From positions 77,757-141,756 of the forward strand of contig CAXXJS010000050.1 in assembly GCA_963662665.2 (NCBI GenBank): a stretch of DNA of 64,000 nt, read 5' to 3'. Under the pieces are notes generated by a model. That model did not search any database and had not been told where the DNA came from. It was given only the letters and a program-made list of their open reading frames with translations. The stretch comes from Candidatus Latescibacterota bacterium (lineage in GTDB: Bacteria > Latescibacterota > UBA2968 > GCA-2709665). This document shows positions 3,155-48,056 of the stretch, piece by piece (the stretch's first letter is position 1; every line of letters starts with the position of its first letter). Position numbers and translations under genes: made by a program.

Positions 3155-3176
3155 GCGTTCTCCCAGGCTGAATAAG

Positions 3177-23300: not shown

Positions 23301-23866
23301 TCGTGGTGGACGCAGTACCCCGGATAGACTTCGGCGAAGCGGTTCAGAATGAGGGCCGCGCGGCGGGCATAGGATCGATCTCCGGTGGCGCAATAGAGTA
23401 CCGACAGGTCGTGGGCGGTCCCGGCAAAATACGCCCGAGCCAGGTACCAGCCCTTGGCCTGAAAGAAATGCCGGTATCCGGTGTCGTCCGCCCAGAAAGG
23501 ATATTCCTGGGTCTGGCCCACGGGGTTGACGACGCTCAGGATCTCGGTATCGGGGAACTGCGCGTTGGGATACCTGAGCCCGCAGTATTTGCAGAAGACG
23601 CGGTCCGGGTCCTGGATCGACCAGTCGATCTGGCCCTCCTGCGCCCCGCCGTCGCAATTTGGGCAGTCTACAAAGTAGATGCCGGACCGTTCGGGGATGA
23701 GGCGCAGTATTTCGTCCTCTGAAAGTGTGAGAACCGGTTCGAGGTTTCGACGCAGCCGCTCCACGTCGGATTCGTCCAGGTCCGGCGGAAAGACTGGGTC
23801 CGCCTCCGCGGGGTTCGGCCGGAATGCGAGAAGGAACAGAAGGAGTACGGCCGCGAAAACGAGCAT
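20321..23866 (-). CDS. secreted heparinase II/III-like lyase with an N-terminal Cys-pair knuckle and C-terminal kelch-like repeats
   Basis: Signal peptide, CPNC/CKYC, DGVWREGAVSYH, GHQHADLLSL and HNTVAVDG. C-terminal repeats such as LWVMGG, DVWCSEDG and LWIIGG. Confidence 0.75.
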   Translation of the reverse strand: MLVFAAVLLLFLLAFRPNPAEADPVFPPDLDESDVERLRRNLEPVLTLSEDEILRLIPERSGIYFVDCPNCDGGAQEGQIDWSIQDPDRVFCKYCGLRYPNAQFPDTEILSVVNPVGQTQEYPFWADDTGYRHFFQAKGWYLARAYFAGTAHDLSVLYCATGDRSYARRAALILNRFAEVYPGYCVHHDLPFRQKIIFPGNQGFPYPVQDYRASKWDWWAYMDIPENLIYAYDLIRDSGELDSTMVRRIEDGFFRASVSFIRGFPPALGNMDPTLLRGMVAAGRVLNEPDYIHDAVDRVERLVAANFLVDGVWREGAVSYHNQTIGGLRQVMERLNGYSDPDGYVHPVDGERYDNLDLNARFPILVKAAGIPDLLRYPNGRVVPTHDTWAKDKRAAPESSGPMLLPGMGHARLDMGKGENRTQTYLHFSGGYGHQHADLLSLTLYARGQERLSDIGYTHTRHRCWTISTLSHNTVAVDGEDQAYGSENTPSDGNLLLFAPHSDTFQAIEASGDRAYPGVTSTYRRLLIQIGLSSGQTYVVDLFRVAGGHRHEYILTGDADHDGAVEVDLPAEDHGNTLLPAGVNANLPTGESVKGDAGGHNLGYAFIRDVRRANVTREWNATFTSQAKPAGSIRVHSLTHPDGDLFAARAPSIRNADEDDTRLDEITMPMLVHRREGENLATLFSTVLEPGGEGPDISSADRLELDGGTDMDIALRIVSGDVTDYILSATDADRTLTYGDISFRGRVGFVRVRNGEVEQMILIGGTLLEKGNRALGGRGTRTGVVLKTRRKAAGDDVDGLLIDTDLPTGVDLAGLTAIVADGDGFTYGHKIKTIHHQEEGGTLLELEDDPGYEITADGGRLLFFPGRSWAGPATAEIPTVASLRINTSGVNATRTGDWINLVHNAPFTPRDTSEDVVFQDKLWISNAYYHSGILSRDLWNSSDGISWHLVSEATPYDGYSEMTAYKDRIWAVKGSVWNSRNGVEWTRVLEETPFGPRGYGELVVHRERMWQLGSGRDVWHSGDGIAWTRATPSAPYGNRSAAAVAAYNDRLWVMGGRIVQRNDPPEKGYADYTTLNDVWCSEDGVIWTRVLEHAPWSPRMWFISKVYAGRLWIIGGYDNANSVNLGDVWYTEDGREWHEFKPDTRFAPRHESTCYVFRNSLWVVAGNTWPVVNDVWRLTLP

Positions 23867-24030
23867 GATAATTCTTCCTTTCGAATCTGAGCGTTCCACA
23901 ACGGTTGCGACGCGGATCTGGCCTGACTCATTCATGCACTAATTGGCGCGGATAGCTGTCTGATTCGCGCATCAACTCAGGCACGCCCGCGCACATCGAC
24001 CGGTCGAGCCGTTGAGGAAGCGGGTGCGTA

Positions 24031-25705: not shown

Positions 25706-27673
25706 CTACCAGTCGTTCAGTTTGTGCCCGTCTCCGTTGAACCAGATAACGTCCGTGACGACCCCCAGACCCACGCCAACGAGATAACCCATGAACATTC
25801 CCAGAAACAGGGGAGCCATTCGTCTGTAGCTGTTGAGGCCTCCGTACCTCAGTATCAGGGCCTTGGTGAGCCAGGCAATGAAAATGGAGGTGACGCTGCT
25901 TCTGAGCACGTTGGATGCTGAAATGGTGAAGCCGATGGGATGGATGGGGAATCCCGGGAATCGGAATCTAAGGAATAACAGGAGTCCGGTGAAAGCGGCG
26001 CCAATACCGAAGAAACCGACGCGGTCCCAGCTTGTGGCGGCGGTTCCCTGCTGGATGCGGGCGGTGGTATACCGCCAGATGCCCACCGCGCCGTCTCCGG
26101 AGCCGTTGAAGCTGACCACGCCGAAGTTGTAACTGCCCGCGCCGTAATACCCCTGATAGAGAATGAACGCAATTACGGAAAGGGCGCCGCCCAGGGCGCC
26201 CATCAGTACGCCGGGCGCAAGCAGGCGTCGACGTTCGGCCCGCATAGCCATACCCAGCCGGGGGATGTGGGCGAGGGCCGTGATACCCCAGGTCTTGGCG
26301 TCGCAGAAAAACGTGTAAGTCAGGCCCAGGGCCACCGCGCTGTGCGCGCCCATCCCTGAAATGCCGAAGAGGTGCCACGTGAATGCCTGGGCCGTGATGG
26401 GACCGCGCAGGTACACGAGACCGCTCTCGACAATGATGCGCGCAAGGCCCAGGTAGAGCACGAGGGTTGCGAACCAGAAAGCGAGCAGGGGGCCGGCAGC
26501 CATTCCTGCGTGGAAGAGCCACAGCAGAAGATACGCGCAACCGGCCAGGAGCAGGTACACGGCCGTGCGGTAGGAGATGAGTTCGTGCGTGTCGTCGATG
26601 AGGTTGTCCGCGTCCCCGCGTTCGGCAAGCGCCGTGCGCGTAAATGCCTTCCTGAATACGGCGGCCAGATGGCTCCGTGCAACCCAGAGGCCCCAGCCCA
26701 CAAAAACAGCGAGACCGCCGAAACTCTGCCAGCCGATGGCGGGATCGAACGAGCACCACATATCCGAACCGCCGATGCTGAATCCCGTGCGATTGAAGAC
26801 GCCGACCTGCAGGATGGCCAGCAGGTGGAAGAGCCAGATACTGAACAGGACGCTCGATTCCGTGAAGTACGCGAACGCGATCGTCATCGGATGGACCGAA
26901 AAGGCGAAGTAGGGGAAGCCCTGGCCGATGCGGATAATCTTGCGGCTCAGGACGGTCATGGGCACGTCCAGGACGGGTATGGCTCTTACGAACCAGGTCG
27001 CGATATTCCAGCAGAAGATGGCAACGATCAGCCAGAACCCGATTTGGAACAGGCGCGACCGGACCAGGGTCGCCAGGCTCCTTTCCGTGCCGGTTACCCC
27101 CGTGAGTTCCAGCACGGCGGTGGCGATCGGGAACGTCAGGCGTTCGTTGTCCATCCACTGTTTGCGAAGGATCACAACCAGGCAGAAACTGACGGTGAGC
27201 ACGGATCCGAGAAACCCGGCCCACCAGAAAAAGGGCGCGGCCCAGGCGGCCCAAGGAAATTTCTGGCCTTTAAATAGACTCTCATAAAAGCCGGTGGCGG
27301 CCGCCGGATCAGAGACAATGGCCCAGGATGGGATCCTTGCGAGCAGGTGTTCCGTCCATTGATTCTCGGGGGTTGCGAAGTAGGTGGGCGCGGTGACCAC
27401 ACCCAGGAGATAGCCCGAGAGCCATTCGCCCTGCATGGTTGAGGCAACCATTCCGATGCAGCAGATGGCGAGCAATTCCGAGGCCGACAGGCCGCGGCCG
27501 CGCCGATACAGCGGGAGATTGAGCCCCAGCAGGCAAACGAAGGGTATGAGCAGGGCCACGGACAGGTGCGCGTAGTCGGCCCGCGATGAATGGGCGATCA
27601 GGCTGGAGTACGTGGGCCAGAGGTTGACCCACACGGCCATGGCCAGGCCAACGAGGAGTGCGCGCAGCGTCAT
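25706..27673 (-). CDS. polytopic membrane protein, DUF6785/DUF6784-like
   Basis: Many TM segments, with LRKQWMDNERLTFP, FPIHPIG and ILRYGG..YRR..PLFLG motifs. Confidence 0.7.
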   Translation of the reverse strand: MTLRALLVGLAMAVWVNLWPTYSSLIAHSSRADYAHLSVALLIPFVCLLGLNLPLYRRGRGLSASELLAICCIGMVASTMQGEWLSGYLLGVVTAPTYFATPENQWTEHLLARIPSWAIVSDPAAATGFYESLFKGQKFPWAAWAAPFFWWAGFLGSVLTVSFCLVVILRKQWMDNERLTFPIATAVLELTGVTGTERSLATLVRSRLFQIGFWLIVAIFCWNIATWFVRAIPVLDVPMTVLSRKIIRIGQGFPYFAFSVHPMTIAFAYFTESSVLFSIWLFHLLAILQVGVFNRTGFSIGGSDMWCSFDPAIGWQSFGGLAVFVGWGLWVARSHLAAVFRKAFTRTALAERGDADNLIDDTHELISYRTAVYLLLAGCAYLLLWLFHAGMAAGPLLAFWFATLVLYLGLARIIVESGLVYLRGPITAQAFTWHLFGISGMGAHSAVALGLTYTFFCDAKTWGITALAHIPRLGMAMRAERRRLLAPGVLMGALGGALSVIAFILYQGYYGAGSYNFGVVSFNGSGDGAVGIWRYTTARIQQGTAATSWDRVGFFGIGAAFTGLLLFLRFRFPGFPIHPIGFTISASNVLRSSVTSIFIAWLTKALILRYGGLNSYRRMAPLFLGMFMGYLVGVGLGVVTDVIWFNGDGHKLNDW

Positions 27674-28817: not shown

Positions 28818-29618
28818 TCAGGATTGCGCGTAGAAACGTATTTCCGGGATGTCTCCGATACTGCCCATTTCGCGTGCGTATCTGTAAAAGAGGTTCAGGC
28901 CCTCGAGTTCAGCCTCGCCAAAGTCGTAACGGATTTTGTTGGCAAGGAAATCGGCATAGAATCCGGCCGAACCCTGACGTGACGACGCGCAAGTCGCCGC
29001 AATATGGGGGATTTCCCGTACCCCCAGCGCCCTTGCCCTGATCAGCTGCCTGGTCTGCTCGGGATCCAGCGCGTGAGACCGGCCCGCCCAGCAGGCGTAG
29101 ACGAACGGAAGCCTCGTAAGTTCGGCCCAGGCACTACCCAGGTCGATCGCGCAAAAGGACGTCGTATCCACGGCGAGCGCCGCGTCTCCGATGATGACGG
29201 CGGCATCGGCTTGATCCAGCATGCCTCCGGCGTCGGGAGACGTGTAGAAGACGTCGGGCGTGCACCGGTATCGTTTCTGCAATACAATGCGGCTGAGGAC
29301 GGCCGACGTCCGGGAGTTGCCGTCCACGGCGAGCGTCCGGATATCGGCCGGGTCTTTACGGTGCAGGAGCAGTACGCTTCTGACCGGGCCCCGGGAGGAG
29401 ACGCCGACTTCGGGCACGACACTGTATGCAACAGGCCCGCGGGCGATTTCGATGGAGGGGATGAGGGCCACGTCGGCTTCGCCGCTGTGAAGGCGTTGGG
29501 CGCAGCGGGCGGGCACGTTGTAGGAAAGATCGAAGCGGTGTTCGATTAGGCCGGTCTCCAGGGCGTGCACCAGCGGACGGGTGTTCAGGAACGAGACCAC
29601 ATCGAGGCGGGTTGCCAT
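28818..29618 (-). CDS. mqnA: chorismate dehydratase (futalosine pathway)
   Basis: VSFLNTRPL, SRTS, IIGDAAL and DLGSAW...LPFVYACW. Follows mqnC. Confidence 0.88.
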   Translation of the reverse strand: MATRLDVVSFLNTRPLVHALETGLIEHRFDLSYNVPARCAQRLHSGEADVALIPSIEIARGPVAYSVVPEVGVSSRGPVRSVLLLHRKDPADIRTLAVDGNSRTSAVLSRIVLQKRYRCTPDVFYTSPDAGGMLDQADAAVIIGDAALAVDTTSFCAIDLGSAWAELTRLPFVYACWAGRSHALDPEQTRQLIRARALGVREIPHIAATCASSRQGSAGFYADFLANKIRYDFGEAELEGLNLFYRYAREMGSIGDIPEIRFYAQS

Positions 29619-29629
29619 TCGCACGGCCT

Positions 29630-30730
29630 TCAGTTCACCATTTCGTACCGGGTGTTGCGTCTCACCGGCCGGTAGCCGGCGCCCCGGATGAGGCGTAACA
29701 TCGTGGGAAGGCTCATGTCGTCGGTGTGGTTGGTGCCTGCGGCGGAAACAACGTTTTCCTCCATCATGGTGCTGCCGAAGTCGTTGACGCCGTATTTGAG
29801 GCCGACCTGGGCAATCTTGGGGCCCTGAGTCACCCACGAGGCCTGAAAACTTGGAATATTGTCCAGAAACAGGCGAGAGACCGCAATGGTTCGCAGGTAA
29901 TCGTATCCTGTGGCTGTCTTGCCGTTCCAGCGGGCGTTGTCGGCGGCCAGGTCGGTATCGTCCGGCTGGAAATTCCACGCAATGAACGCGGTCAGACCTC
30001 CGGTGTCGTCCTGGAGGTCCCGGATGTGTTTCAGGTGTTCGAGGCGCTGGTCGACGGATTCGACGTGGCCGTACATCATGGTGGCGGTGGTGTGCATGCC
30101 CAGTTCGTGTGCCGCGCGATGCACCTCCAGCCATTCGTGCACCCGGTCTTTGCGGAAGCCGATGATGTCGCGAACCTCGTCCGACAGAATTTCGGCTCCT
30201 GCGCCAGGAATGGAATCCAGGCCGGCGTCCCGCAGGCGGCGGATGCAGTCCGAAATGGAGAGACGCGAGATGTGCGCGACATAGATGATCTCCGTGGCCG
30301 AAAGGCAGTGCTGGTGCACGGAAGGATAGCGCTCGCGGATACTTGAGAATAAACCTTCGTAGTAGTCGATGCGCAGCCTGGGATTCAGGCCCCCCTGCAT
30401 CAGGATTTCGTTCGATTTTGGAGTTTGCCCGCCCGCGGCAACCAATTCGTCGATCTTCCGGAAAATTTGTTCCCGGGGCAGGACGTATCCTTCGTCGGAT
30501 CCGGGAGGGCGGTAGAACGCGCAGAAATCGCATCGTACCCAGCAGACGTTGGTGTAGTTGATGTTGCGGCCGATGTTGTAGGTGACCACGTCTTCCGGCC
30601 ATCTGCGCCGGCGCGCGGCGTCTGCCAGCATGCCCAGTTCCGTGACGTTGGGATGAGCCATCAGGCGCCGGGCGTCATCTACAGTGATACGCGCTTCCGC
30701 GTCGATCTTTTCGGCAATATCGTCGATCAT
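29630..30730 (-). CDS. mqnC: cyclic dehypoxanthine futalosine synthase (radical SAM)
   Basis: RNINYTNVCWVRCDFCAF, LMQGG, QASWVTQG and DFGSTMMEENVV. Confidence 0.9.
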   Translation of the reverse strand: MIDDIAEKIDAEARITVDDARRLMAHPNVTELGMLADAARRRRWPEDVVTYNIGRNINYTNVCWVRCDFCAFYRPPGSDEGYVLPREQIFRKIDELVAAGGQTPKSNEILMQGGLNPRLRIDYYEGLFSSIRERYPSVHQHCLSATEIIYVAHISRLSISDCIRRLRDAGLDSIPGAGAEILSDEVRDIIGFRKDRVHEWLEVHRAAHELGMHTTATMMYGHVESVDQRLEHLKHIRDLQDDTGGLTAFIAWNFQPDDTDLAADNARWNGKTATGYDYLRTIAVSRLFLDNIPSFQASWVTQGPKIAQVGLKYGVNDFGSTMMEENVVSAAGTNHTDDMSLPTMLRLIRGAGYRPVRRNTRYEMVN

Positions 30731-30928
30731 CGATCCGTTCTCCGCGTCCAATGATGCTTAACCTCAATACAAATAAGAATAACCGTTAAATCGGCCACAA
30801 AAAGCACAAAAGGCACAGAAGGTATCGGTGCGAAACGACGTGGGTCATCCCTGCACCTCATGCATCCACGATGCTCCCAACGGCCGATTTAATTCACGCA
30901 CCTACGATCACCACAATGAGAAGCAGTC

Positions 30929-32491
30929 TTAAACCCGGGAAAGTCGATCGAGTATGCGATCAACGAGGCACTTTGCAGCCACTCTGTTCAAAGAGCACAC
31001 GTAAATGAGATCGAAAACTTCCTTGTAGGTCGCCCTTTTTGGTGATGGGAGGTATTCGAGGATGTCGCCATCAACCTTGGTCGTGTGAGTATCGACAGCA
31101 TTCTCAATCGAGGCAAGACGCCCCCTGAGCGCACCACGATCGTCATCCTCAAATAGATCAAAATCGATCGCTTTTCTCATTTCGGACAATAGAGTGGCGA
31201 CCTCGGCTTTGATGGACTTGGCGTATTGCTCCGAGACGGCGCCTTGCTTGATCACGTCCAGCTTCTCGAAAATCTTGTCAGCACTTAGCTCGAATGTCTT
31301 GAGACGGTTTCGCTTTTGAGAGGAAACACGGCATTCACGCGCGATTTGAGCCCCCACGGGGCGCAAATGCGCAATGATATTGTCTAAGTGTGCATTGCTT
31401 TCGAACTCATCCCGTCGTCCGTTCGGCACGATCCGCGTATCTAGAACGTGAATCTCTCCTATCGCCCAGGAACAGAAACGATCCTCGGGAAATATATCGA
31501 GAAAAAGACGATCATGGCCGACCTGGATGTTACCCACACGAGCGCGGAGTCCGCGAACTCCCTGAGATACCGGGATCGCGCCTTGATAGTCATGGTTGAC
31601 CAGCCATCCTACGGCAGCGATATCACCATCGATACTCTCGATCTTGAATGACTCAAGATTGAGCAGGTTCGCCTTTTTCGTGTCCGAATACACAACCTCA
31701 TCGCGATAGGGGCGAAAGACCGGCTCTTCTGCACCATTAATGTGAATGTTATAGGACTTGCCCGCTCGGCCGTGAGTCGCGAGGAGCGTCGCTATTTCGG
31801 GTCCGAATGAAAACTCGGGCGAGAACGGACACGGACAAACTTGACTGATGAAGGCTTCGATCTCCACTTCATTCAAGAGCCTGTCATTGGAAATCCGCCG
31901 CGGCTTGACGAACTCAACCTCGAAGAAATGAGTAGGATAGTCATCGGGATTAAGCAACTTCAATGTGACAGCCTCTCTCACGATCGTTGGTAGGTCCGTA
32001 ACTCTGTCAGTTGACGCTAGCATCGACTTGACCACGCGTCCGTCCCACATCGCCTCCATGACCTTTGTATCGCCGTCGGTCCTAGAGCGAAACAGGAGCT
32101 GTTGCACATAGCCTAGCCCAGAAAGTCGCCCGACACCGCGTAAACCCCGCGCATCCGTGCCACGCTTCTCGCTCGCCCCAATGGAAAGCATACGTGCTGG
32201 GAAATCCTCGTTGGAAATGCCCTTTCCATTGTCCCGGATCACGACTCGACGGTCAATATGATCGAGATTGATCTCGATCAGCCCGTCATCGATTGAAGGC
32301 AATAGGCCCAAAACCACAGCATCATCAATGGAGTCGGTGGCGTTTTGCACATACTCCCGGAAGATCGAAAGTGGATTGACATACATAGAGCTACTCAAGA
32401 TCTCCAGTACGTCCTTGCCTACGAAAACTTCGTGCTCCTCAAGAACCTCAGCATTAGCCCTTTTGACCTCGATCATCCCCTCGATCCCCAC
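30929..32491 (-). CDS. GHKL (Hsp90/MORC-like) ATPase
   Basis: Bergerat motifs FREYVQNATDS, IRDNGKGI and GLRGVGRLS, then GEIHV...PNGRRDEF in the second domain. Confidence 0.85.
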   Translation of the reverse strand: MGIEGMIEVKRANAEVLEEHEVFVGKDVLEILSSSMYVNPLSIFREYVQNATDSIDDAVVLGLLPSIDDGLIEINLDHIDRRVVIRDNGKGISNEDFPARMLSIGASEKRGTDARGLRGVGRLSGLGYVQQLLFRSRTDGDTKVMEAMWDGRVVKSMLASTDRVTDLPTIVREAVTLKLLNPDDYPTHFFEVEFVKPRRISNDRLLNEVEIEAFISQVCPCPFSPEFSFGPEIATLLATHGRAGKSYNIHINGAEEPVFRPYRDEVVYSDTKKANLLNLESFKIESIDGDIAAVGWLVNHDYQGAIPVSQGVRGLRARVGNIQVGHDRLFLDIFPEDRFCSWAIGEIHVLDTRIVPNGRRDEFESNAHLDNIIAHLRPVGAQIARECRVSSQKRNRLKTFELSADKIFEKLDVIKQGAVSEQYAKSIKAEVATLLSEMRKAIDFDLFEDDDRGALRGRLASIENAVDTHTTKVDGDILEYLPSPKRATYKEVFDLIYVCSLNRVAAKCLVDRILDRLSRV

Positions 32492-32496
32492 TTTTC

Positions 32497-34125
32497 CTAC
32501 ACATATACTTGGGTGGCAGTTTTTACCTGCTGTTTTGCCCTTGTACCCGGCTGCACATCCTGATCCGTCAGCGTCGCATCTTCCACGCGCTCATCTTCAG
32601 GCACCAGAATGGCATTGATGTCCTCGACTCGTCGTCGTTTTTGTGCCTCCCAGATCAGCACCTCATCGGCCTTGGGCATCGGCACGAAGTATCGTGCGGC
32701 CTCCCGCAATCTGCCTGCAGCAAGCAAACTCAGGTCGCGCTCATAGTCACTTTTTTCGCGACTACACAGATAACTAAGGAGCTCCGTACGCTCATCTGCC
32801 GATAGGGTCTCCATCACGGCCTGGAAGGAGTCGAACTCCGCCCGGCCATCAAACTGCTCGTACCAGTTGCGGTTGAAGATGTAATGGTGTGGCCGGAACA
32901 GAATCCCTTCGAATTGCTCGAAAGTGTCTCCGAAGGCCTTTCTGAAGAACTCAGGTGCACCGCTAACAATCCCGTGTGTCGCTTGCAGGATGACCTGCAT
33001 CGAGCGGAGATAATAGGAATTCCAGTTCTCACCGACATGGCCTCTGTCCTTACGCGTGACCGGCTGATAGCGCATCGGGAAAGAGAAGATGCGAATACCT
33101 AGCTCCTCATTCAGTGTCACGTTGAGACGCATACGTTCAAAGAGATCGTTCGGACTGTCATAAAAGTTGTAGAGCATATAGTTCGATAGCTCTGTAATCC
33201 CGGCCTCGGCAGCAAACCGGATGGCTTGTTCATAGGGCTTCCTAACGCCGAGATGGTCGAAGGCAATTCGCAATGGCTTCAGCGCAATACGCGAAAGCTG
33301 CTGCAAAAACATCGGATGTTTGCAGAGTATGCGGGCATCGACACCTTGATTGAAGTCCACCCGGCGTTGGTGGTCGTAGCGTCCGCGCTTGAGCGTCGCC
33401 CCGCGCTCAAAGCCAAGATCAATGATTTCCGCGATGATGTCCTTGAAGTTAGCGGAAGCGACGACATTGTTATCCATCAAGATCAGATCCCGCTTCTCAC
33501 CGTAGAGACGATTGACGCCCTCAATGATCTCGCTCAGCGAGTTTGTATCCCTCTGATCACCTTCAAGTTTCGGGACACCGCAGAACGCACATTTTCGAAC
33601 GCAGCCGCGCGAGGCGTAAGTGAAGTAGGCATCTGTTACAGGGTACTTATACTCAATATGGTCCAGAATGCTGTAATCCGGCACCAAGTCTTCGATGGGC
33701 TTGCCGTCTACATCATCCGCATAAAGTTCTTCTTCGAACGGGTCGAGGCATAACGAGATGGCGGGTGCGTCACCCAACAACCCCTTGATAAAACGGACGC
33801 CGCGCCACTTCGGCTCTTCGAGATACTTCTCATGCATTAGCGATGCAGCAATCCCACCGACAAAGACGCGGTGCGCCTGGCCGCCAGCCAAATCAAGCGC
33901 ATAATCGATGCTGCGTGCCGTGCGCTCCCACTCAAAGGAGAACAGCGTGGTAATATAGACGCGGTCCCAGGCTGTCTCGTGAGCTGAAGGGTCTTCACCC
34001 TTCACAAAGCGAACATTGTCCTTCTTGCCGTTGGGGCCATGATACTGGGCAATTTTCATCAGCCCTAGTGGTGGGTATTTGTTCCTGTAACCCGGTTCGA
34101 CAAGAAGGATGTTCTTGTTTGCCAT
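32497..34125 (-). CDS. radical SAM protein with a B12-binding-like N-terminal region
   Basis: SRGCVRKCAFC (CxxxCxxC at 33580-33603), N-terminal ILLVEP...YPPLGLMKIA, then LMDNN and DFNQGVDAR. Confidence 0.88.
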   Translation of the reverse strand: MANKNILLVEPGYRNKYPPLGLMKIAQYHGPNGKKDNVRFVKGEDPSAHETAWDRVYITTLFSFEWERTARSIDYALDLAGGQAHRVFVGGIAASLMHEKYLEEPKWRGVRFIKGLLGDAPAISLCLDPFEEELYADDVDGKPIEDLVPDYSILDHIEYKYPVTDAYFTYASRGCVRKCAFCGVPKLEGDQRDTNSLSEIIEGVNRLYGEKRDLILMDNNVVASANFKDIIAEIIDLGFERGATLKRGRYDHQRRVDFNQGVDARILCKHPMFLQQLSRIALKPLRIAFDHLGVRKPYEQAIRFAAEAGITELSNYMLYNFYDSPNDLFERMRLNVTLNEELGIRIFSFPMRYQPVTRKDRGHVGENWNSYYLRSMQVILQATHGIVSGAPEFFRKAFGDTFEQFEGILFRPHHYIFNRNWYEQFDGRAEFDSFQAVMETLSADERTELLSYLCSREKSDYERDLSLLAAGRLREAARYFVPMPKADEVLIWEAQKRRRVEDINAILVPEDERVEDATLTDQDVQPGTRAKQQVKTATQVYV

Positions 34126-34232
34126 GATCTGCCTCGACCGATATTTCGTACATCTAATCTACAGAGATTGGGTTTATCGAACCAGTTTCTGCGGTTCCTT
34201 GAGATCTCCTTAACCAACCGTGCCGGGATCGG

Positions 34233-36566
34233 TTATGAAACCACCGGAGTTTCTGAGATATCCTTAGGGAAAAACTCCTCAACTCTATCGTAGATTTTTT
34301 TAACTTTCGTGACTTGCTTTGAGTTCAGAGCGCCTTGCTCGGGATGTGCGACTATATTACGTATTTTATTGAGGTCCGTAATCCATTTCGTGTTTACTCT
34401 TTTCGCTTCTTTGTCTTTGGCGTCTAGCGAAATTACGTTTTTAACCAAGTCCCAGTTTTGAATGCATATTTCAACGTAGTTCTGCAGGTAGAGTTGACTT
34501 TCTTCGTCGCCCACACGGTTTTTTTCCTCCCACCGGCTACTACAATCCACACGAATTTTGGAAGGCACTCCCTGAACCCACCAAGCCTTGTCTTGTGTCC
34601 CATATTCCTCTTTCAACACGCCAATGACGTACTCGAATATTCTCTTCTGAATCCGGAGAACATTCGTGCGTGCTTCCTCGGTGCCCGCCTCATCACGCGA
34701 GTCAATGTACTTCTGCAGCCCTGCTGGTTTGAACTCGGGATACTCTTTCCGGATTTGGGCTTCCATGCCATAGGCCTGTTGCCGAACGGCTGTCAGGGAC
34801 GAGCCAATGCGTCGGAAAGCCTGGACATCTTGGTCGGAGGCACTCTTGAAAAAGGCGATCAGCACTTGAAGATATGGACTTATTGCGGTGAATGTCTCTT
34901 CGGCACTGAAGAGATAAAGGTCCGTGCCGTCTTCTTGCCGAATATGATCAGCAATGTCCTCGATGACATGAAATAGAGCTCGGATGCCGTTATTCGTGCA
35001 CAGATACCCCCCTCGACCATCACCGATCTCCCAGTGATACGTAAGCTCGGTCGAGAACATCGTGAGGCAGTCCGAGAGCACTGATAAGGCTTTCTTCAGG
35101 TTCGCCTCATATTGGTCCGTCCTGATCGTGGACAGCGGGCCCGGTACAACTGCGCCCTTGGTGAACATTCCTAATAGCTTGGAAACGCGGAGGCCGTCTC
35201 GAATCGAGGTCTGCGTCAGGCAGCGAAACTGGGTCTTCCTCGTTCCGGTGACTACCATGCGGTCATGAAGCGGCGAGGAACCCTCGCTGTTGAGACGCGA
35301 GGCGATACGCGAGAGTAGGGCCTGGAACGCTTCTTCACGGTCGGATGAGCACCAGTGAAGGTCCGCGTAAAGCTCAACCAACAGGCCTGTACTCACCTTG
35401 ACTTGCTTGCTGTTGATATCGATGAAGAGGTTCATCTCCTTGTCGGAAGGGAGGTTTTCAAAAGCAAGTACGGGCAAGACCGTCGAATCCTGCTTGAAGG
35501 CTTTTTGCTCACGCGCATAGGCATAGCCGTAGAGCCTATGTTGGCCATCGATGATCCAGGCGGAGGCATAAAGCGGCGGCAGATGCAGTACGCCCAAGGC
35601 CTCATCACCGTAGTTCTCCTTTACATCGAACCGCAATTTGTTCTTCCTTCCAGTCTTCAGGTTGGCAACGATATTCGTCGGAAACTTGTTACCATCATTG
35701 ATGTATTCTGCGATCTTTTTCAGGCGGCGCGGCTGGAGCATGCGCTGGTATGTTTCCAAGTTCTCGATGTCGCGGCTTGCTTTGTGGCCGACGTAGGCAA
35801 TCTTCAAGAGTTCATCGGGGCGGATAAGGAAAGTGTAGAAGGTCTCACCGCCCATCTTACCGCGGGTTGCTACGACTTCTTTTGTTAGGCCGTCAATCTT
35901 CTGGCCTGCAAACATGTGCCCCAAAAACTGGTAGCGCGCCGCTTGCTTGAGGTGCTGCGCTAGCAACGCATAGTAATTGAGTTCGCCGTCGGAGATTACC
36001 GAAATCTGCGCTTGCTTGCACTTTTCAAGGTCCACGTCACTCCAAGAGATGTTTCTTGTTGCGATGACATATTTAACTTTGAGCTTACTGTATTGGCCGT
36101 AGACCTTGCGGATCGATTTGTGCAGGTTCTCGCGGATTGCCCTGATCTTCTCGATCAGCTGCGCCATGCTTTTTTTGCTCGGCGTGTCGCGCCGCGTGCA
36201 CTCCACGATTATGACAGTTTCATCATCTTTGGCGAACACGTCGATCTGGCGGGATGGCAGGCCATCTCCGACGGCAATGGTGAACTGGCGTCCTTTGCTC
36301 ATCTCCTTGAAGCCCATCTGGGCTAGGACGCTCCAGACTTCGTCTTCAAGTTGCTCGTCAGCAGGCTTCGGCTTGGCCATGCGCGTTGACTTGGCGTTTC
36401 TTCTGACTATCCGCCAACCGTCAGCTTCTTCGAGCTTCACCTTTGCAGCAATGATCTTTCTCGACGAACCCGATACAGTCTTGTATATATCCTTCCTTTT
36501 TCGGCTTCTGAGCTCTGTTGTGATCTCATCGCCGGAGACGAGGGGTCCTAGGTATTCATCCGTCAT
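34233..36566 (-). CDS. DGQHR/DndB-like domain protein with an N-terminal PD-(D/E)xK-like domain and a C-terminal HEPN-like domain
   Basis: QIDVFAKDDETVIIVEC; YQR...FPTNI...IIDGQHRL...FIDINSKQ; C-terminal WW...NW...RNIVAH (Rx4H). Confidence 0.85.
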   Translation of the reverse strand: MTDEYLGPLVSGDEITTELRSRKRKDIYKTVSGSSRKIIAAKVKLEEADGWRIVRRNAKSTRMAKPKPADEQLEDEVWSVLAQMGFKEMSKGRQFTIAVGDGLPSRQIDVFAKDDETVIIVECTRRDTPSKKSMAQLIEKIRAIRENLHKSIRKVYGQYSKLKVKYVIATRNISWSDVDLEKCKQAQISVISDGELNYYALLAQHLKQAARYQFLGHMFAGQKIDGLTKEVVATRGKMGGETFYTFLIRPDELLKIAYVGHKASRDIENLETYQRMLQPRRLKKIAEYINDGNKFPTNIVANLKTGRKNKLRFDVKENYGDEALGVLHLPPLYASAWIIDGQHRLYGYAYAREQKAFKQDSTVLPVLAFENLPSDKEMNLFIDINSKQVKVSTGLLVELYADLHWCSSDREEAFQALLSRIASRLNSEGSSPLHDRMVVTGTRKTQFRCLTQTSIRDGLRVSKLLGMFTKGAVVPGPLSTIRTDQYEANLKKALSVLSDCLTMFSTELTYHWEIGDGRGGYLCTNNGIRALFHVIEDIADHIRQEDGTDLYLFSAEETFTAISPYLQVLIAFFKSASDQDVQAFRRIGSSLTAVRQQAYGMEAQIRKEYPEFKPAGLQKYIDSRDEAGTEEARTNVLRIQKRIFEYVIGVLKEEYGTQDKAWWVQGVPSKIRVDCSSRWEEKNRVGDEESQLYLQNYVEICIQNWDLVKNVISLDAKDKEAKRVNTKWITDLNKIRNIVAHPEQGALNSKQVTKVKKIYDRVEEFFPKDISETPVVS

Positions 36567-36777
36567 GCCACAGAACGCTCCTGAATCAAAAAGCCGTTGA
36601 GAGAAGGTTCAAATTTACACGCGATTATAAGATATGAGCTTGACGGATTTACCCCTTGCCCATACCGGACGCCAGCCAACCAAGAAACACAACAACCGCC
36701 ACTGGTATTGCCAGCAACGGATAATGCCACCAATCAAATCTCTGCATTGTAACCGTCCGTTTTCGACATTTGGACAA

Positions 36778-37023
36778 TTACTCCACACGCTCATATACAT
36801 CATAACTGTGACGCAGAAGCCAGGTACCTTTCGTGTGGTCTTTGAGGACGCCACGGACATTCCGTTTCCATTTTGGTTCTGACGTCCAAGGAACTGGATC
36901 GAAATCTTCATCATCGAGCGAAGCCCGGTTTTCAACTATGTCGTATAATTCAGAAACATCGTAACGTCTTCCCATTTGCATACGCCTTTGAAGAATATCT
37001 CGGATCTGTGGGTATCTGGTCAT
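36778..37023 (-). CDS. small hypothetical protein, possibly a winged-helix domain like those N-terminal to restriction/HNH nucleases
   Basis: YDVSELYDIVE...EPKWKRNVRGVLK pattern. Co-oriented with the island genes. Confidence 0.5.
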   Translation of the reverse strand: MTRYPQIRDILQRRMQMGRRYDVSELYDIVENRASLDDEDFDPVPWTSEPKWKRNVRGVLKDHTKGTWLLRHSYDVYERVE

Positions 37024-37028
37024 AAGGC

Positions 37029-37400
37029 TTACCCTGAACGATATTGCAATTTAAGTTGTGGTTGATTGAGTCCGAGCCCGACAGTGCCGGGCGCATTGAA
37101 GCGCTTGCCCGCGAATATATCGTCCACAGTGAGTATTTGCAGAATCTGATATGCGGCTTGCCCGTTTTGAACGTCTCCCGCGTGTGCCGTTTCCCGCCTG
37201 AAGTTGTGTTCCTTTCGGTCGCCGAGGCGCTCCAGAACGATTCGCCCGCCCACCATGCCCAAGTAATTTACTAAAATGCTGCGCAACCCCCGCAAGTCGC
37301 AAATACCGACATTCTTACCCCCTTGACTTCTATGGCTATGCATTGCAGGTCCGGTTTCCTTGGACAGTCGAAATTCAGCCGGCCGTCGAAATGGTTGCCA
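37029..37400 (-). pseudogene. C-terminal relic of a restriction-endonuclease-like domain, of the type fused to DNA methyltransferases
   Basis: DGRLNFD...IAIEVKG shifts frame at the G5 run (37318-37322) into GKNVGICDLRGLR...LQILTVDDIFAGKRF. No 5' part is present. Confidence 0.55.
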
Positions 37401-37421
37401 CTTTGATGACCATGACCGCCT

Positions 37422-38573
37422 TCACGGAAGCACGGGCAATTCGCCGGGGACGCCAACGGGTTCGTCGTCTCCAGGAATGTCCTGTTCCGTGTGCAGTTCG
37501 TTGTAGAGATTGTCTCGTTCCGCCGGCTCCCTTCCGGCTTCGATAATGCGTTCCACCAGCTGTTTCCGGGCGAGGACCTGCCGGGTCTCCTCGTACGTGC
37601 GTCTCGTAATTTCGTATTCCTGGATGGTGCCGTCGATGTCATCCGCGCCGTACCATAGGGCGACCTGCGAGATTTCGATGGTGTTCATGATCCAGAAAGA
37701 CTTGATGTGCGGAAAATTGTCCAGCATGAGTCGGGCGACGGCGATTTCCCGCAGGTCTGCTTCGCCGGTGGGGGTGGGCAGGTCTTCCAGTTCGGTGCGT
37801 TCGGGGTGGAAGGAAAGCGGAATATATGCCAGAAAACCGCGGGTCTCGTCCTGGAGTTCCCGGAGGCTTACCAGATGCTGAACCCTTTCGTCCGGATTCT
37901 CTATGTGGCCGTAGAGCATCGTGGCGTTGGTGGGCAGGCCCACTTCGTGCGCGGTGCGGGCAACCCGCATCCATTCGTCGGAGTCGGCCTTGGTCCAGAA
38001 CATCTCCGCCTGGACCCGGTCGCTGAAGACTTCGGCGCCACCGCCGGGGACCGACGACACGCCAGACGCCTTGAGTTCCAGCATGACGTCCCGGAGCGGT
38101 TTCTTTGCGGCTCTTGCGATCTGTACCCATTCGATCGCCGTAAAGGCCTTTACGGCGACGTCCGGGCGGACTTCCTTCACGGCGCGTACGATGTCGATGT
38201 AGTAGGAATAGGGCAGCTTCGGGTTGATTCCCGCCACCATGTGGATTTCGGTGATGGGGATGTGCAGATATTGTCTTACCCTCTCCCGGACGTCTTCCGG
38301 GGAGAGGACATATCCCCGACGGTCTTTCGGCGGTACGTAAAAGGAGCAGAATCTGCAGAGTTTATTGCAGATGTTGGTGTAGTTGATGTGCTGGTTGCGC
38401 ACGTACCAGGCCACGTTCCCGCATAGACGCTCGCGGACGATATTGGCCATGAACCCCACCGCGTTGAGATTCGACGTCTTGTAAAGCCGCATCCCGTCGT
38501 CGGCGGAGAGGCGTTCGCCGGCGACGACTTTCTCGTAGATGTCGTAGAGTTCGCGTGGAATCTTCGGTTTCAC
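37422..38573 (-). CDS. mqnE: aminofutalosine synthase (radical SAM)
   Basis: HINYTNICNKLCRFCSF, KAFTAIE, PGGGAE, NATMLYGHIE and HIKSFW. Confidence 0.9.
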   Translation of the reverse strand: MKPKIPRELYDIYEKVVAGERLSADDGMRLYKTSNLNAVGFMANIVRERLCGNVAWYVRNQHINYTNICNKLCRFCSFYVPPKDRRGYVLSPEDVRERVRQYLHIPITEIHMVAGINPKLPYSYYIDIVRAVKEVRPDVAVKAFTAIEWVQIARAAKKPLRDVMLELKASGVSSVPGGGAEVFSDRVQAEMFWTKADSDEWMRVARTAHEVGLPTNATMLYGHIENPDERVQHLVSLRELQDETRGFLAYIPLSFHPERTELEDLPTPTGEADLREIAVARLMLDNFPHIKSFWIMNTIEISQVALWYGADDIDGTIQEYEITRRTYEETRQVLARKQLVERIIEAGREPAERDNLYNELHTEQDIPGDDEPVGVPGELPVLP

Positions 38574-43744: not shown

Positions 43745-45331
43745 TCATCGCGCAAAATCCACCGAGCGCGTTTCTCTGATTACGGTAACCTTTACGGGCC
43801 CCGGGCATGTGGCGTCTTCGGTGAGCCGCGAGACGATCTGCGTGGCCAGCCGTTCGGTGTCCGCGTCGCTCATCATATCGGAGTCCGCAACCACGCGGAC
43901 TTCCTGTCCGGCCTTGATGGCGAAGACCGATTCCACGCCCTGTACCATCTTGGCGATGGACTCCAGTCGTTCCAGCCGTCTTACGTAATTCTCGATCTGT
44001 TCCCGCTGCGCGCCCGGCCGCGACCGGGATATGGAGTCGGCTGCGTCGACCAGCACGGCAACGGGCGAAATCGGATCCGAGTCTCCGTGATGGGACTCGA
44101 TGGCGTTGATCACAACTGCGTCTTCACCATATTTGCGCGCAAGGTCAGCGCCATTCTCTCCGTACGTGCCCTCGGATTCGTGCGCCAGGCCCTTGCCAAT
44201 GTCGTGAAGCAGACCCGCGCGTTTGGCAAACTGGGCGTCGAGACCCAGCGACGTGGCCATCATGCCCGCAAGAAACGCCACTTCCTTACTGTGATTCAGC
44301 AGATTCTGACCGTAGCTCGTACGGTATTTAAGGCGTCCCAGGCAGGCAATGAGGCGATCGTGCAGGCCCGGCACGCCAACATCGAACGCCGCCTGAACGC
44401 CGGCGTCGTGCATGACCTCGCGAATCGACTCTCTCGACTTCTGCACGATTTCTTCGATCCGGCCCGGGTGTATGCGTCCATCCAGAATCAGTTGTTCCAT
44501 GGCAATCTGGGCAGTCGCCCTGCGTATGGGGTCGAATCCCGACAGGATCACGGCTTCCGGCGTGTCGTCGATCGTGACATCCACGCCCGTAGCCATCTCA
44601 AAGGCGCGGATGTTCCGCCCCTCGCGTCCGATGATCCGCCCCTTCATCTCGTCGGAAGGCAGGCGAACTACCGCAACGGTGGATTCGATCGTATGGTCTG
44701 CGGCCAATCTTTGAATTGCCGCGGCTATAATTTCCCGTGCTTCATCGTTGGCGCGGACGAGCGCGTCGTCGCGGATTTCCTTTAGCCGCCACTCCGCATC
44801 GCGTTCAGCCTCGTCTTCCATGTTGGCCATCAGAACACGTTTTGCCTCTTCCTTTGTGAGCCCTGCGATCTGTTCCAGGCGCTTGTTCTGTCTCAGCCGG
44901 CTCTGTTCCAGCTCCCGTTCCCGGTCGGCCAGTTGCGCCTCCAGCAACCGGAGTTGCTCGTCTTTCCCGGTAGCCAGCTTTTCCTTATCGTTCAACAGAT
45001 CCGCGCGTTTGTCGAGCTGCCGCCTCAGGCTGCTCAGCTTCATCTCTTCCCGGGCGGTTCGTTCGCGCTTTTCTTCCAGTTCCTGTTCAAACCGGAGCCG
45101 TTCCTGCTGTATCCTGTCTTTGGCTTCCAGGACCGCCGTCCGCTTCATTGCGTCCGCTTCGGTCTGGGCATCTTCAAGGATCTTTTCCGCGGAGAGTTCG
45201 GCGCGATGGATCTTGCTGTGCGCGATCTTGCCGCTGATAAGCCATCCCAGGAGATAACCCAGTATAAGCAGGCCGGCCGACAGCATCGTCACCGTCACGA
45301 CTTCCAGGGTCGTATCTATCGGCAGGTTCAT
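43745..45331 (-). CDS. rny: ribonuclease Y
   Basis: N-terminal TM and coiled coil, KH domain (KGRIIGREGRNIR) and HD domain (LLHDIGK). Confidence 0.95.
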   Translation of the reverse strand: MNLPIDTTLEVVTVTMLSAGLLILGYLLGWLISGKIAHSKIHRAELSAEKILEDAQTEADAMKRTAVLEAKDRIQQERLRFEQELEEKRERTAREEMKLSSLRRQLDKRADLLNDKEKLATGKDEQLRLLEAQLADRERELEQSRLRQNKRLEQIAGLTKEEAKRVLMANMEDEAERDAEWRLKEIRDDALVRANDEAREIIAAAIQRLAADHTIESTVAVVRLPSDEMKGRIIGREGRNIRAFEMATGVDVTIDDTPEAVILSGFDPIRRATAQIAMEQLILDGRIHPGRIEEIVQKSRESIREVMHDAGVQAAFDVGVPGLHDRLIACLGRLKYRTSYGQNLLNHSKEVAFLAGMMATSLGLDAQFAKRAGLLHDIGKGLAHESEGTYGENGADLARKYGEDAVVINAIESHHGDSDPISPVAVLVDAADSISRSRPGAQREQIENYVRRLERLESIAKMVQGVESVFAIKAGQEVRVVADSDMMSDADTERLATQIVSRLTEDATCPGPVKVTVIRETRSVDFAR

Positions 45332-45370
45332 TCTGGTCTCTCCGTCCTGTTAAATCCATGCACAAAAAAA

Positions 45371-45450
45371 CCCGCTTGCATCATCCGGTTCCGTACATCC
45401 CGTCCGGTTTACAATGTTCGTTCCGGATGGTTACAGATGAACGCAGCAGG
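45371..45450 (-). ncRNA. structured RNA in the zapA-rny spacer, possibly a short 6S-like RNA or a terminator
   Basis: The 5' CCTGCTGCGTTCATCTG pairs with the 3' CGGATGATGCAAGCGGG, followed by T8. It lies in the syntenic ssrS position. Confidence 0.4.
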
Positions 45451-45521
45451 CAGCACCGGAATTGTCGATCCGGCAGGCGCGCCGGGAATCGCTGGCGCGC
45501 CCTCACTGTTTGAGGTTGTCT

Positions 45522-45806
45522 TTACGCAATCCGGTTTGTGAAAGACGCCAGATTGTGGGTGTGTTCCGTCAGGGTGTCTCCCAACTTCCGACTGGCTTCT
45601 TCCTCTTTGTGCAGTTCGTGGGCAAGATTGACGGCCGCAACGACTGCAACTTTGGCAACCGAACGAAGCGAAATGCAGTTCGCCACGTCACGCATTTTCC
45701 GGTCGACGTACCGTGCCGCGGCCCGGGCATGATCCGGGTCGCCTTCCGCGTAGATGCTGTATTCGGTGCCGAAGATCTGGACGCGTATTACCGGTTGGTC
45801 AGACAT
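45522..45806 (-). CDS. zapA: cell division protein ZapA
   Basis: VQIFGTEYSI...YVDRKMRDV...VAVVAAVNLAHE. Confidence 0.88.
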   Translation of the reverse strand: MSDQPVIRVQIFGTEYSIYAEGDPDHARAAARYVDRKMRDVANCISLRSVAKVAVVAAVNLAHELHKEEEASRKLGDTLTEHTHNLASFTNRIA

Positions 45807-45888
45807 GAAACCTCGGGTCATCCGGAGGCAATGTGAAACTCTGTCAACGGACTGCCAGGGTTCGGTGTGGTAATTCGGCAGCGCTGTT

Positions 45889-46440
45889 TTACGCTGTATT
45901 GATTGAATCCAGACGCGTAATCATGGTTTCGATTTTGCGTTGGATTTCCTCCTTGTTCTCAATAAGGGAAGCATTATTGTCGTAAATGGACCGGAGGCGT
46001 TCCCTATCGGCCCGCAATCCGGAAATGACCTGGTCCTGGTTTCCCAGCCGTTCCTCTTGTTCCCTGTTGCTCTGCTGGAGGTCTGTGATTTCCTGCCGTA
46101 ACTGCTGTATCATATCCACGGCACGATCGATTTCACCAATAAGCAGATCCAGCTGTTCTGAAACTCGATTTTCCGACTCCAGTGGATCCTCTTCCGGGTC
46201 TTCGGTTACGGGCTGTCCGTCTGCCTCGGCGGGGGTTTCTTCCGCATCGTGCGACGCGGGCGGTTCGTTTGCGGGTTCGACGGTTCCGAATGGTTGTTCT
46301 TGCGTGTCTTGAAGATCGAGTTGCGCGTCTTCCGGATCGTCCGGTTTCACCTGTTCGTCGGTCGGATGGACGGGTTCGAACGGCTCGTTGTCTAAAATCC
46401 CGGAATCCAGCTGTTCATTTACCCGGTCTTGCGCTTCCAT
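45889..46440 (-). CDS. ZapB-like coiled-coil protein with acidic N-terminal extension
   Basis: C-terminal heptads ending KEEIQRKIETMITRLD. Directly upstream of zapA. Confidence 0.6.
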   Translation of the reverse strand: MEAQDRVNEQLDSGILDNEPFEPVHPTDEQVKPDDPEDAQLDLQDTQEQPFGTVEPANEPPASHDAEETPAEADGQPVTEDPEEDPLESENRVSEQLDLLIGEIDRAVDMIQQLRQEITDLQQSNREQEERLGNQDQVISGLRADRERLRSIYDNNASLIENKEEIQRKIETMITRLDSINTA

Positions 46441-46529
46441 GTAGTCACCCTTTCATCGCTGACGGTAATTCCCGATGCGTTTTTTTCGTTGAGGGAACAC
46501 AAGTACGCTTGCATAATACCACACTACGC

Positions 46530-46558
46530 AATGTAATACCTACATGGCCTGAAGTCAA
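46530..46558 (-). promoter_or_regulatory. putative sigma70 promoter for the zapB-like/zapA/rny operon
   Basis: TTGACT-N17-TACATT. Confidence 0.5.
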
Positions 46559-46651
46559 GGGTGGGTTACCTGAAGCAGGGGGGAGGGTAATCGGAATCGG
46601 AACCGGCGCAAGGAGACGCTTTTCCGACGAATTCCGTGTCCTGAAGGCCAT

Positions 46652-47005
46652 TTACAGGTGTTGTCGGGCCTGGTCCGTCAGCGCTGTGAAGGCCGCTGCA
46701 TCCGTGACGGCGAGGTTGGCCAGAACTTTCCTGTCAACCGAAATATCGGCCTTTTTCAGGCCATTGATCAGGCTGCTGTAGGACAGTCCGTTAAGCCGGG
46801 CGGCGGCGTTGATTCGAACGATCCACAGGGCGCGGAAATTTCTCTTCTTCTGACGACGGTCCCTGTATGCATAGGAAAGCGCCCGGTTTACGGCGTCGTC
46901 TGCGGTGCGGTACAGCTTGCTGCGCCCGCCCCTGTAACCGCGCGCGGCTTTCAGTACTTTTTTCCGCCTGCGCCGCGAAGCGACGCTATTTGTCGATCTG
47001 GACAT
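46652..47005 (-). CDS. rplT: 50S ribosomal protein L20
   Basis: [15 protein letters not shown]...[24 protein letters not shown]. Confidence 0.98.
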
Positions 47006-47132
47006 GTCGATGGTCTCCTGGTAGCGTCAGGCCGTGTTGCGTGCCGTCGTTGCCGCCCGCCAGCGCCCTCTATTGAAAATCCGACTTACTCTGAATGGAA
47101 AGGAATTTTCAAATTGAAATCGCAATGGTCCG

Positions 47133-47996: not shown

Positions 47997-48056
47997 ACCT
48001 ATCACCTCCGAATTTGATTCGAGCCGATGTTGGCCAAAATGGAGTATCGAGGGGGT

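Follow-up and report, generated by a model that had tools for sequence, protein, structure and literature searches.

Viperins are the established radical SAM enzymes in phage defence; they act alone on nucleoside triphosphates and make nucleotides. To our knowledge, no other radical SAM enzyme has an established role in prokaryotic immunity, and we know of none that marks DNA for discrimination between self and non-self. Nothing in the literature searched, mostly openly accessible full text, contradicts either point. Self-marking of DNA is associated with another protein family, DGQHR, through the Dpd and Dnd systems. The accessible parts of the relevant papers report that the ATPase activity of the DGQHR protein DpdB is needed by DpdA to place preQ0 in DNA (PMC10164549), that DndB is a regulator (PMC12839542), and that HEPN and PIN RNases accompany Dnd modification genes as well (PMC10853773). 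The subject of this analysis is a cassette which encodes a DGQHR protein, a radical SAM enzyme (rSAM) and a GHKL ATPase side by side. It lies in a 64,000-nucleotide stretch of DNA from a Candidatus Latescibacterota bacterium (contig CAXXJS010000050.1), referred to here as the window. The three genes are:

34233-36566, minus strand: gene for the 777-amino-acid (aa) DGQHR-HEPN protein (P0001), ATG start
32497-34125, minus strand: gene for the 542-aa radical SAM enzyme (P0002), ATG start
30929-32491, minus strand: gene for the 520-aa GHKL ATPase (P0003), GTG start

The gaps between the genes are 107 nt (P0001-P0002) and 5 nt (P0002-P0003). In 1-kb windows, GC content is 0.47-0.54 at 31-37 kb versus 0.61-0.63 at 24-30 kb. 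A preliminary description of this DNA had reported three intact, co-oriented genes with these gaps in an AT-richer block; the list of open reading frames (ORFs) and the GC windows agree with it.

The trio is a horizontally acquired cassette and the most compact form of a modular system. The constant core of this system is rSAM with an Hsp90-like GHKL ATPase; a DGQHR protein is the usual partner, and the effector modules are interchangeable. The cassette was inserted, its genes are co-inherited with their catalytic motifs intact, modules are swapped around the core, and mobile elements carry it. The system is abundant, mobile and essentially uncharacterised. We tentatively read the trio as the minimal form of a widespread, mobile, modular conflict system (anti-phage or anti-plasmid) in which rSAM would mark host DNA, as the modifying enzymes of Dpd and Dnd do.

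The radical SAM-GHKL core and its exchangeable partners

Loci were collected by a pattern scan with one genome per species; this confirmed 158 relatives, from which the 80 best loci were taken forward. Complete 8-kb flanks are available for 55 of the 80 (the full-flank loci), and identities were compared over 69. In 79 of the 80 loci the gene next after rSAM is GHKL; the sole miss (L060) ends at a contig edge. Hidden Markov models found both genes in all 55 full-flank loci. The pair is also present in 27 of 40 closer loci from IMG/VR (L091-L130), many of which have the reversed order GHKL-rSAM, often near an integrase. Distant, short phage relatives of rSAM (L131-L166; 23-39% identity) have no GHKL gene (0/36) and were set aside as other families. 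Mean pairwise identity over the 69 loci is 0.68 for rSAM and 0.44 for GHKL, and the two sets correlate (r 0.82).

One protein of 1359 aa (P0394) joins near full-length DGQHR (6-336), rSAM (377-852) and GHKL (877-1314) parts in operon order. Two further proteins occur on one contig each: P0205 (791 aa) has the look of a DGQHR-rSAM protein, and P0269 (531 aa) combines a partial rSAM with a partial GHKL. They were not counted as fusions, since they are singletons and may be products of assembly or frameshift.

A DGQHR ORF is found in 56 of the 80 loci. Together with the adjacency of the pair and the triple fusion, this establishes that the trio co-occurs elsewhere; the failure of homologues to do so had been named in advance as grounds for abandoning the proposal. 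The three genes had also been proposed as a unit. They are indeed co-inherited, but the core consists of rSAM and GHKL, and the 777-aa protein is a swappable accessory with relatives in 19 of the 80 loci. Directly upstream of rSAM (69 loci compared), 43 loci encode a DGQHR protein, of which 35 have a short form of about 346 aa and 8 the long DGQHR-HEPN form; another 5-6 loci have a ParB-like protein there. The short form matches the DpdB model (1.7e-17). In nine of the 80 loci a long DGQHR gene lies directly upstream of rSAM and no short one is present, so the long form seems to assume the role of the short form. The ParB-like cassette proteins (cluster c2) were considered as divergent DGQHR proteins, which was rejected at an hhalign probability of 0.3%. 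At least 19 switches of the upstream module are seen along the rSAM tree (76 rows, six phyla). Modules and integrases in the full-flank loci are:

28-29 of 55 loci: cassette of ParB-like, 135-aa, SNF2 and ParB-like proteins
23 of 55 loci: PIN_8 protein with a second GHKL paralogue
7 of 55 loci: predicted membrane protein
5 of 55 loci: HerA/FtsK-like ATPase
12 of 55 loci: integrases

Of the 55, 54 have one or more separate modules of nuclease, helicase or membrane type. A single locus has short DGQHR, rSAM and GHKL with no further module, and three resemble the window in having a long DGQHR protein as the sole accessory. The SNF2 helicase matches the ZorD and DpdE models (1e-38 and 4e-33); the HerA-like ATPase matches DndH's C-terminal region (2.7e-48) and mad8.

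Other associations were also observed. Cluster c11 is a protein of about 220 aa with several hydrophobic helices, probably a membrane effector, which accompanies the pair in seven loci (right downstream of GHKL in L005, L009, L011 and L074; also L028, L034 and L072). DUF5131 (PF07505) genes lie beside a HerA-like/GHKL/c9 module in eight loci (L020, L030, L036, L049, L053, L055, L058 and L077); the Pfam match in L030 is 9.8e-98. A second architecture, found in 13 prophage-like IMG/VR loci (L102, L108-L110, L120-L122 and L125-L130), has two Pfam-less genes (v2 and v3, about 387 and 563 aa), then GHKL, then rSAM; several of these loci are beside an integrase, and the protein of about 563 aa has a weak profile likeness to the HerA-like module (hhalign probability 20%). 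In the IMG/VR loci L116, L118 and L124, a ParB-like protein of about 520 aa (hhalign 96% to c2) and a protein of about 130 aa precede rSAM; no GHKL gene was detected in these three.

Domains and motifs of the three proteins

The following features are found within P0001 and P0002:

34953-35870, minus strand: DGQHR (ParB/DndB/DpdB-like) domain, aa 233-538 of P0001 (TIGR03187)
34293-34646, minus strand: HEPN domain with Rx4H motif R736...H741, aa 641-758 of P0001 (Pfam HEPN_Swt1)
35922-36389, minus strand: N-terminal domain, aa ~60-215 of P0001, restriction-endonuclease-like by motif alone
33580-33603, minus strand: codons of the CxxxCxxC [4Fe-4S]/SAM motif (C175, C179, C182) within P0002

P0002 belongs to the radical SAM superfamily by its cysteine motif and by a profile match through its relatives. 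In an alignment of 40 diverse relatives, C175-x3-C179-x2-C182 is invariant (40/40) and no other cysteine is. The Pfam Radical_SAM model (PF04055) scores 21.4 bits on P0002 itself, under the cut-off of 29.5; the relatives P0133 (29.9) and P0131 (31.0) pass. The identity read from CxxxCxxC in the preliminary description is upheld. The N-terminal region appears to form a Rossmann/B12-binding-like domain. Pfam did not detect the B12-binding family PF02310 in P0002 itself, and its scores in two relatives (P0210, 21.5 bits; L121, 25.1 bits) are below the cut-off of 32.1. The best NCBIfam matches are B12-binding radical SAM and MiaB/RimO-type families, all far under cut-off. A sequence search of the PDB matched RimO/MiaB at E 0.014-0.4 and was otherwise uninformative. 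A MiaB/RimO methylthiotransferase was ruled out; no cysteine is invariant beyond CxxxCxxC, and TIGR01125 gives 24.4 against 357. A prokaryotic viperin was rejected as well, as no viperin or pVip family in PADLOC or NCBIfam matched at E<=0.1. Atlas matches for rSAM were to its own cluster and to related 'radical SAM' clusters, and to nothing else. Amino acids 1-440 are conserved; the last ~100 are variable and apparently unstructured.

P0001 is a member of the DGQHR family: TIGR03187 scores 199.8 bits (cut-off 58.85), and the D340-G-Q-H-R344 motif is invariant among the relatives aligned (sets of 19 and 17 sequences). The PADLOC DpdB model matches at 6.2e-19 and Pfam DndB at 4e-14. The more specific models fall short of their cut-offs: NF041060, the DpdB equivalog, gives 62.2 bits (cut-off 300), and TIGR04172 (DGQHR_dnd_1) gives 83.8 (cut-off 450). 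HEPN_Swt1 (PF18731) scores 25.4 bits (1.9e-5), slightly below the Pfam cut-off of 27.5, and PADLOC PDC-M34B matches the same region at 2.6e-5. The sequence RNIVAH occupies aa 736-741, and R736 and H741 are invariant in 19/19 and 17/17 relatives (two alignments). On sequence criteria the region belongs to the HEPN superfamily; precomputed annotation already assigns PF18731 to some relatives. The N-terminal domain has a weak match to Pfam Card1_endonuc (aa 71-150, E 0.007), and E74, D75, D109, K113, D114, E122-C123-T124 and K132 are invariant in 13/13. A PDB sequence search gave nothing informative for full-length P0001 and no match for this domain. P0001 had been described as a DGQHR protein with nuclease-like ends. 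The DGQHR domain and the HEPN end have profile matches; the N-terminal end is at most a weak Card1-like match. Of the scored candidates, 2698 are related to P0001 at E<=1e-3.

P0003 is a GHKL ATPase. HATPase_c_3 (PF13589) scores 41.9 bits (cut-off 25), and the Bergerat residues E46, N50, D53, D87, G89, G116, G119 and G121 are invariant in 38/38. The PDB entries which best match its profile are N-domains of HtpG/Hsp90 (3.9e-12), and the 60 best listed are all of the Hsp90 family. The middle region is conserved; aa 401-480 are variable. The ATPase had been called MORC-like. This was rejected, along with paraMORC: Hsp90-family N-domains are on top, and there is no DNA methyltransferase within the cassette and none that is recurrent in the flanks. 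As judged from its profile, the ATPase is nearest to Hsp90/HtpG, not MORC.

Acquisition, spread and surroundings of the cassette

The insertion, its parts and its flanking genes are:

30847-37419: inserted block of low GC, 6.57 kb, flanked by two menaquinone (futalosine pathway) genes
30847-36607, minus strand: transferable three-gene cassette, ~5.8 kb, with DNA-level identity to other genomes
36608-37419, minus strand: 812-nt part of the insertion beyond the shared cassette, with small ORFs at 36615-36935, 36778-37023 and 37029-37343
28818-30602: VitK2_biosynth (futalosine pathway) gene, at one flank
37422-38573: MqnC/CofH-type radical SAM gene, at the other flank

The block is an insertion because the two menaquinone genes are adjacent in all five same-genus genomes examined (L084-L088), where the equivalents of positions 30846 and 37420 are ~30 nt apart. 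By blastn, a metagenome-assembled genome (MAG) of Terriglobia (L001) is 84.6% identical to the window over an exact extent of 30847-36607, and a Binatia MAG (L002) is 82.5% identical across 30935-36588. The host genome (4.86 Mb, 92% complete) has a single copy of each trio gene. The small minus-strand ORFs at 36615-37343 encode 106, 81 and 104 aa; they have no Pfam match at E<=1 and no tblastx match among ~160 fetched loci. An integrase, a tRNA and flanking direct repeats were looked for at the insertion and none was found. A scan for promoters and terminators gave no more sites than in shuffled sequence.

The 80 loci span six phyla, and the rSAM tree (76 rows) has at least 10 switches of phylum label. 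One of 40 related genomes has rSAM; at 58% identity, this copy was probably acquired separately. Six of 168 genomes of the phylum carry rSAM, the host genome included. At least 7998 of 8000 scored candidates (90%-identity clusters) are relatives of rSAM; the best 120, from Alphaproteobacteria and other groups, are 80-96% identical. In a library clustered at 50% identity, 1627 clusters match at E<=1e-3, of which 278 do so at E<=1e-30. The rSAM system is found in twelve plasmid records, seven of them conjugative, and integrases adjoin several prophage-like copies.

One plasmid copy is in pNL1, a cultured plasmid of Novosphingobium aromaticivorans DSM 12444. The gene order there is PIN-like, ATP-binding (GHKL), DGQHR, radical SAM, ATP-binding (GHKL), followed by a long DGQHR gene on the opposite strand; all have generic names. 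It lies among transfer-region cargo (DUF736, DUF1173 and an SOS-response-associated peptidase). The flanks of the collected loci were sampled as 120 of 312 eligible ORFs, with four near-duplicate loci left out. They contain four integrases, four DUF5131 genes, three methyltransferases of small-molecule type, one relaxase, one transposase and housekeeping genes. Enrichment in defence islands, which had been proposed as a check, gave no clear signal in this sample. A temperate phage, Marinitoga camini virus 1 (L090; KP836355.1, 37383-38465), has a 360-aa rSAM relative with 31% identity across 69% of the query; it adjoins genes annotated as HerA helicase and Rad50/Mre11-associated exonuclease.

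Beyond the MqnC/CofH-type gene, the window continues with housekeeping genes (RecN-like, NAD kinase, exonuclease VII and RNase Y). Elsewhere in the window, a 1204-aa protein with a heparinase II/III C-terminal domain and Kelch repeats is encoded at 20321-23935 (minus strand), adjoined by a tRNA-Leu(CAG) gene at 19659-19746. A 655-aa DUF6785/DUF6784 protein (6.4e-90) is encoded at 25706-27673 (minus strand), with amidohydrolase and zinc-dehydrogenase genes either side. Other stretches of low GC, at 3001-4000 (0.48) and 45001-51000 (0.53-0.59) against a background of ~0.61, could be acquired segments.

Proposed function and relation to known systems

In the proposed mechanism, the DGQHR domain, as a nucleotide-dependent DNA-binding module, and an ATP-gated GHKL dimer would engage DNA and present it to rSAM. 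Using SAM and its [4Fe-4S] cluster, perhaps together with a cobalamin-type cofactor in the N-terminal Rossmann-like domain, rSAM would put a radical-derived mark on host DNA. Unmarked nucleic acid would then be attacked by an accessory effector. In the window, this effector would be the restriction-endonuclease-like N-terminal domain and the HEPN RNase domain built into the DGQHR protein; elsewhere it may be the ParB-like/SNF2 cassette, the PIN protein with the second GHKL, the HerA-like ATPase or the membrane protein. The defence role, DNA as the substrate, the order of events and the chemistry of rSAM are what we infer. The preliminary description had cast rSAM as the writer, the DGQHR protein as the sensor-effector and the GHKL ATPase as the regulator or loader; these would be plausible roles. 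Marking of the Dpd/Dnd kind is favoured because both characterised DGQHR proteins (DpdB and DndB) serve DNA-modifying enzymes, because the accessory modules resemble parts of Dpd, Dnd and MADS, and because there is a triple fusion and nothing else that could serve as the writer. A more specific proposal is rather doubtful: rSAM, with a ParB-fold DGQHR NTPase and an Hsp90-like clamp to load it, might write a novel radical-derived DNA mark (e.g. C-methylation or alkylation at an unactivated base or sugar carbon).

Several observations weigh against the marking of host DNA. No member of the system has a known modified base, and rSAM does not have a variable target-recognition region. In 24 of the 80 loci no DGQHR was detected within 8 kb, and the ParB-like proteins of DGQHR-less loci are not detectably related to DGQHR (hhalign 0.3%). 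The triple fusion is one sequence on one contig. The nuclease call for the N-terminal domain of P0001 is a weak match plus a motif in which Thr124 replaces the canonical Lys of (D/E)xK. Known defence genes are not clearly enriched in the 120 sampled flanking ORFs. RNases (HEPN, PIN) and a membrane protein make up several of the accessory effectors, which fits abortive infection as well as restriction.

The main rival, which we consider somewhat unlikely, is an infection-triggered response resembling abortive infection with no self-marking. The Hsp90-like ATPase would sense infection or act as a switch, and rSAM would make a modified nucleotide, as viperin does, or a signal; the DGQHR domain, a nucleotide-binding ParB fold, would bind the product and switch on the HEPN and nuclease-like domains or other effectors. 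Such a sensor would be expected to diverge quickly, and GHKL does diverge much faster than rSAM (0.44 vs 0.68 over the 69 loci), with aa 401-480 as a variable region. Among the effectors are RNases and a predicted membrane protein. The order of domains in P0001 (nuclease-like, ligand-type, HEPN), with its weak Card1_endonuc match, is also consistent with such a response; Card1- and Csm6-type sensor-effectors resemble this architecture. Viperin, the only established radical SAM enzyme of phage defence, makes nucleotides, but P0002 has no viperin-type family match. The commonest partner is moreover the short DGQHR protein (directly upstream in 35/69), which has no effector domain. A single-chain DGQHR-rSAM-GHKL protein suits a machine with one substrate better than a generator with a receptor for a diffusible product. 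As far as the accessible sources go, the two DGQHR proteins that have been characterised each serve a DNA-modification system. A preprint (10.64898/2026.10.19.760177), in the part available, nevertheless reads an HSP90 and Radical SAM neighbourhood as toxin-antitoxin (TA)-like and released by infection.

A function outside defence is improbable. The genes could serve mobile-element maintenance, DNA repair, anti-restriction or establishment, or a cofactor or metabolite pathway in which an Hsp90-like protein matures rSAM. The setting of the pNL1 copy among the transfer-region cargo of a conjugative plasmid would suit such a role, as would the absence of clear known-defence enrichment from the sampled flanks and the fact that Hsp90-type proteins are chaperones. 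However, modules of nuclease, helicase and RNase type accompany the pair across six phyla, and the models nearest to them are defence components. There are no recurring biosynthetic neighbours, and the distribution is patchy, strain-level and island-like.

It is quite improbable that rSAM is itself the weapon, guided by DGQHR and GHKL to invading DNA (or RNA or protein) for radical damage or blockage, with the HEPN and nuclease domains as backup. We know of no precedent for this. rSAM is the most conserved enzyme and is always present, and the accessory effectors are dispensable and swappable, one of the 55 full-flank loci having short DGQHR, rSAM and GHKL only. Yet in 54 of the 55 the core is accompanied by a nuclease, helicase or membrane module of separate origin in the locus, which suggests that an effector is required, and it is not evident how self would be told from foreign. 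Chance adjacency of three functionally unrelated genes is scarcely credible, as it is contradicted by the adjacency in 79 of 80 loci, the correlated divergence, the conservation of both gene orders and the triple fusion, and nothing was found in its favour.

If rSAM does write a novel radical-derived mark on DNA, Dnd and Dpd would be joined by a third system of epigenetic self-marking with DGQHR assistance, and this would be the first defence system to modify DNA through radical SAM chemistry. The presence of pNL1 in a cultured host makes the system directly testable. A positive result could uncover new DNA chemistry, give Hsp90-like ATPases a role in nucleic-acid conflict and lead to tools of a new class. 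A negative result would still give a function to the large family annotated 'radical SAM protein / ATP-binding protein / DGQHR domain-containing protein'.

PADLOC-DB 2.0.0 returned no named system; P0002 matched only LmuB (E 0.04), and P0003 only REase_II (0.008) and TmtA (0.028). NCBIfam release 20 has no specific model for rSAM or the ATPase, only generic names. With no rSAM or ATPase model in PADLOC-DB either, the earlier statement that no named system has this trio is supported. In the literature searched, mostly openly accessible full text, a DGQHR/ParB, radical SAM and GHKL system is undescribed and there are passing mentions only. The HEPN-ParB fusion protein, however, had already been catalogued: the accessible part of Anantharaman et al. 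2013 (PMC3710099, Table 1) lists 'ParB (Saro_3948), mostly active' as a fusion of the Swt1-like HEPN clade. By name and host, Saro_3948 is probably the long DGQHR-HEPN protein of pNL1. The entry as seen there covers the domain fusion only, with no link to rSAM or GHKL. The preprint named above mentions, in one sentence, a three-gene neighbourhood of 'HSP90 chaperone + Radical SAM enzyme' and PAACC, read as an immune system. In its available text, the neighbourhood with a cyclase-like effector is taken as TA-like and infection-released, and HSP90-like NTPases as switches. This is possibly the same rSAM-GHKL pair with another effector; the available text mentions neither DGQHR nor DNA modification there.

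The central catalyst of this candidate defence system is a radical SAM enzyme, a point of likeness to the prokaryotic viperins (pVips). It differs in that P0002 appears to have an N-terminal Rossmann/B12-binding-like domain, and has a constant GHKL partner and, in most cases, ParB-fold DNA-binding proteins too. With MORC/paraMORC and the Hsp90-like GHKLs of conflict systems, it shares a GHKL ATPase in an operon with nucleases and helicases (accessible parts of the Tiamat preprint and PMC2292703). In contrast to MORC, there is no linked DNA methyltransferase and the partner is a radical SAM enzyme; the terms 'radical', 'ParB' and 'DndB' each have 0 occurrences in the MORC paper (PMC2292703). 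No conventional DNA methyltransferase is present in the cassette; the whole 64-kb window was not screened for methyltransferases.

The absence of DpdA and DndC had been noted from the window alone and extends to the host genome (92% complete), in which profile searches gave 0 matches to DpdA (NF041059) and 0 to DndC (TIGR03183); DndA, DndD and DndE were not searched separately. The locus is thus neither a Dpd nor a Dnd system. It resembles Dnd in that DGQHR has the DndB fold and the HerA-like accessory resembles DndH's C-terminal region, and differs in that the cassette has no cysteine desulfurase or PP-loop enzyme. The likeness to Dpd lies in the DGQHR/ParB-like protein beside a catalytic enzyme, in the combination of a modification core with a variable restriction part, and in the SNF2 helicase of the accessory cassette, which resembles DpdE. 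The difference is that rSAM stands in the place of DpdA/TGT and that the Hsp90-like ATPase is an obligatory part of the rSAM system.

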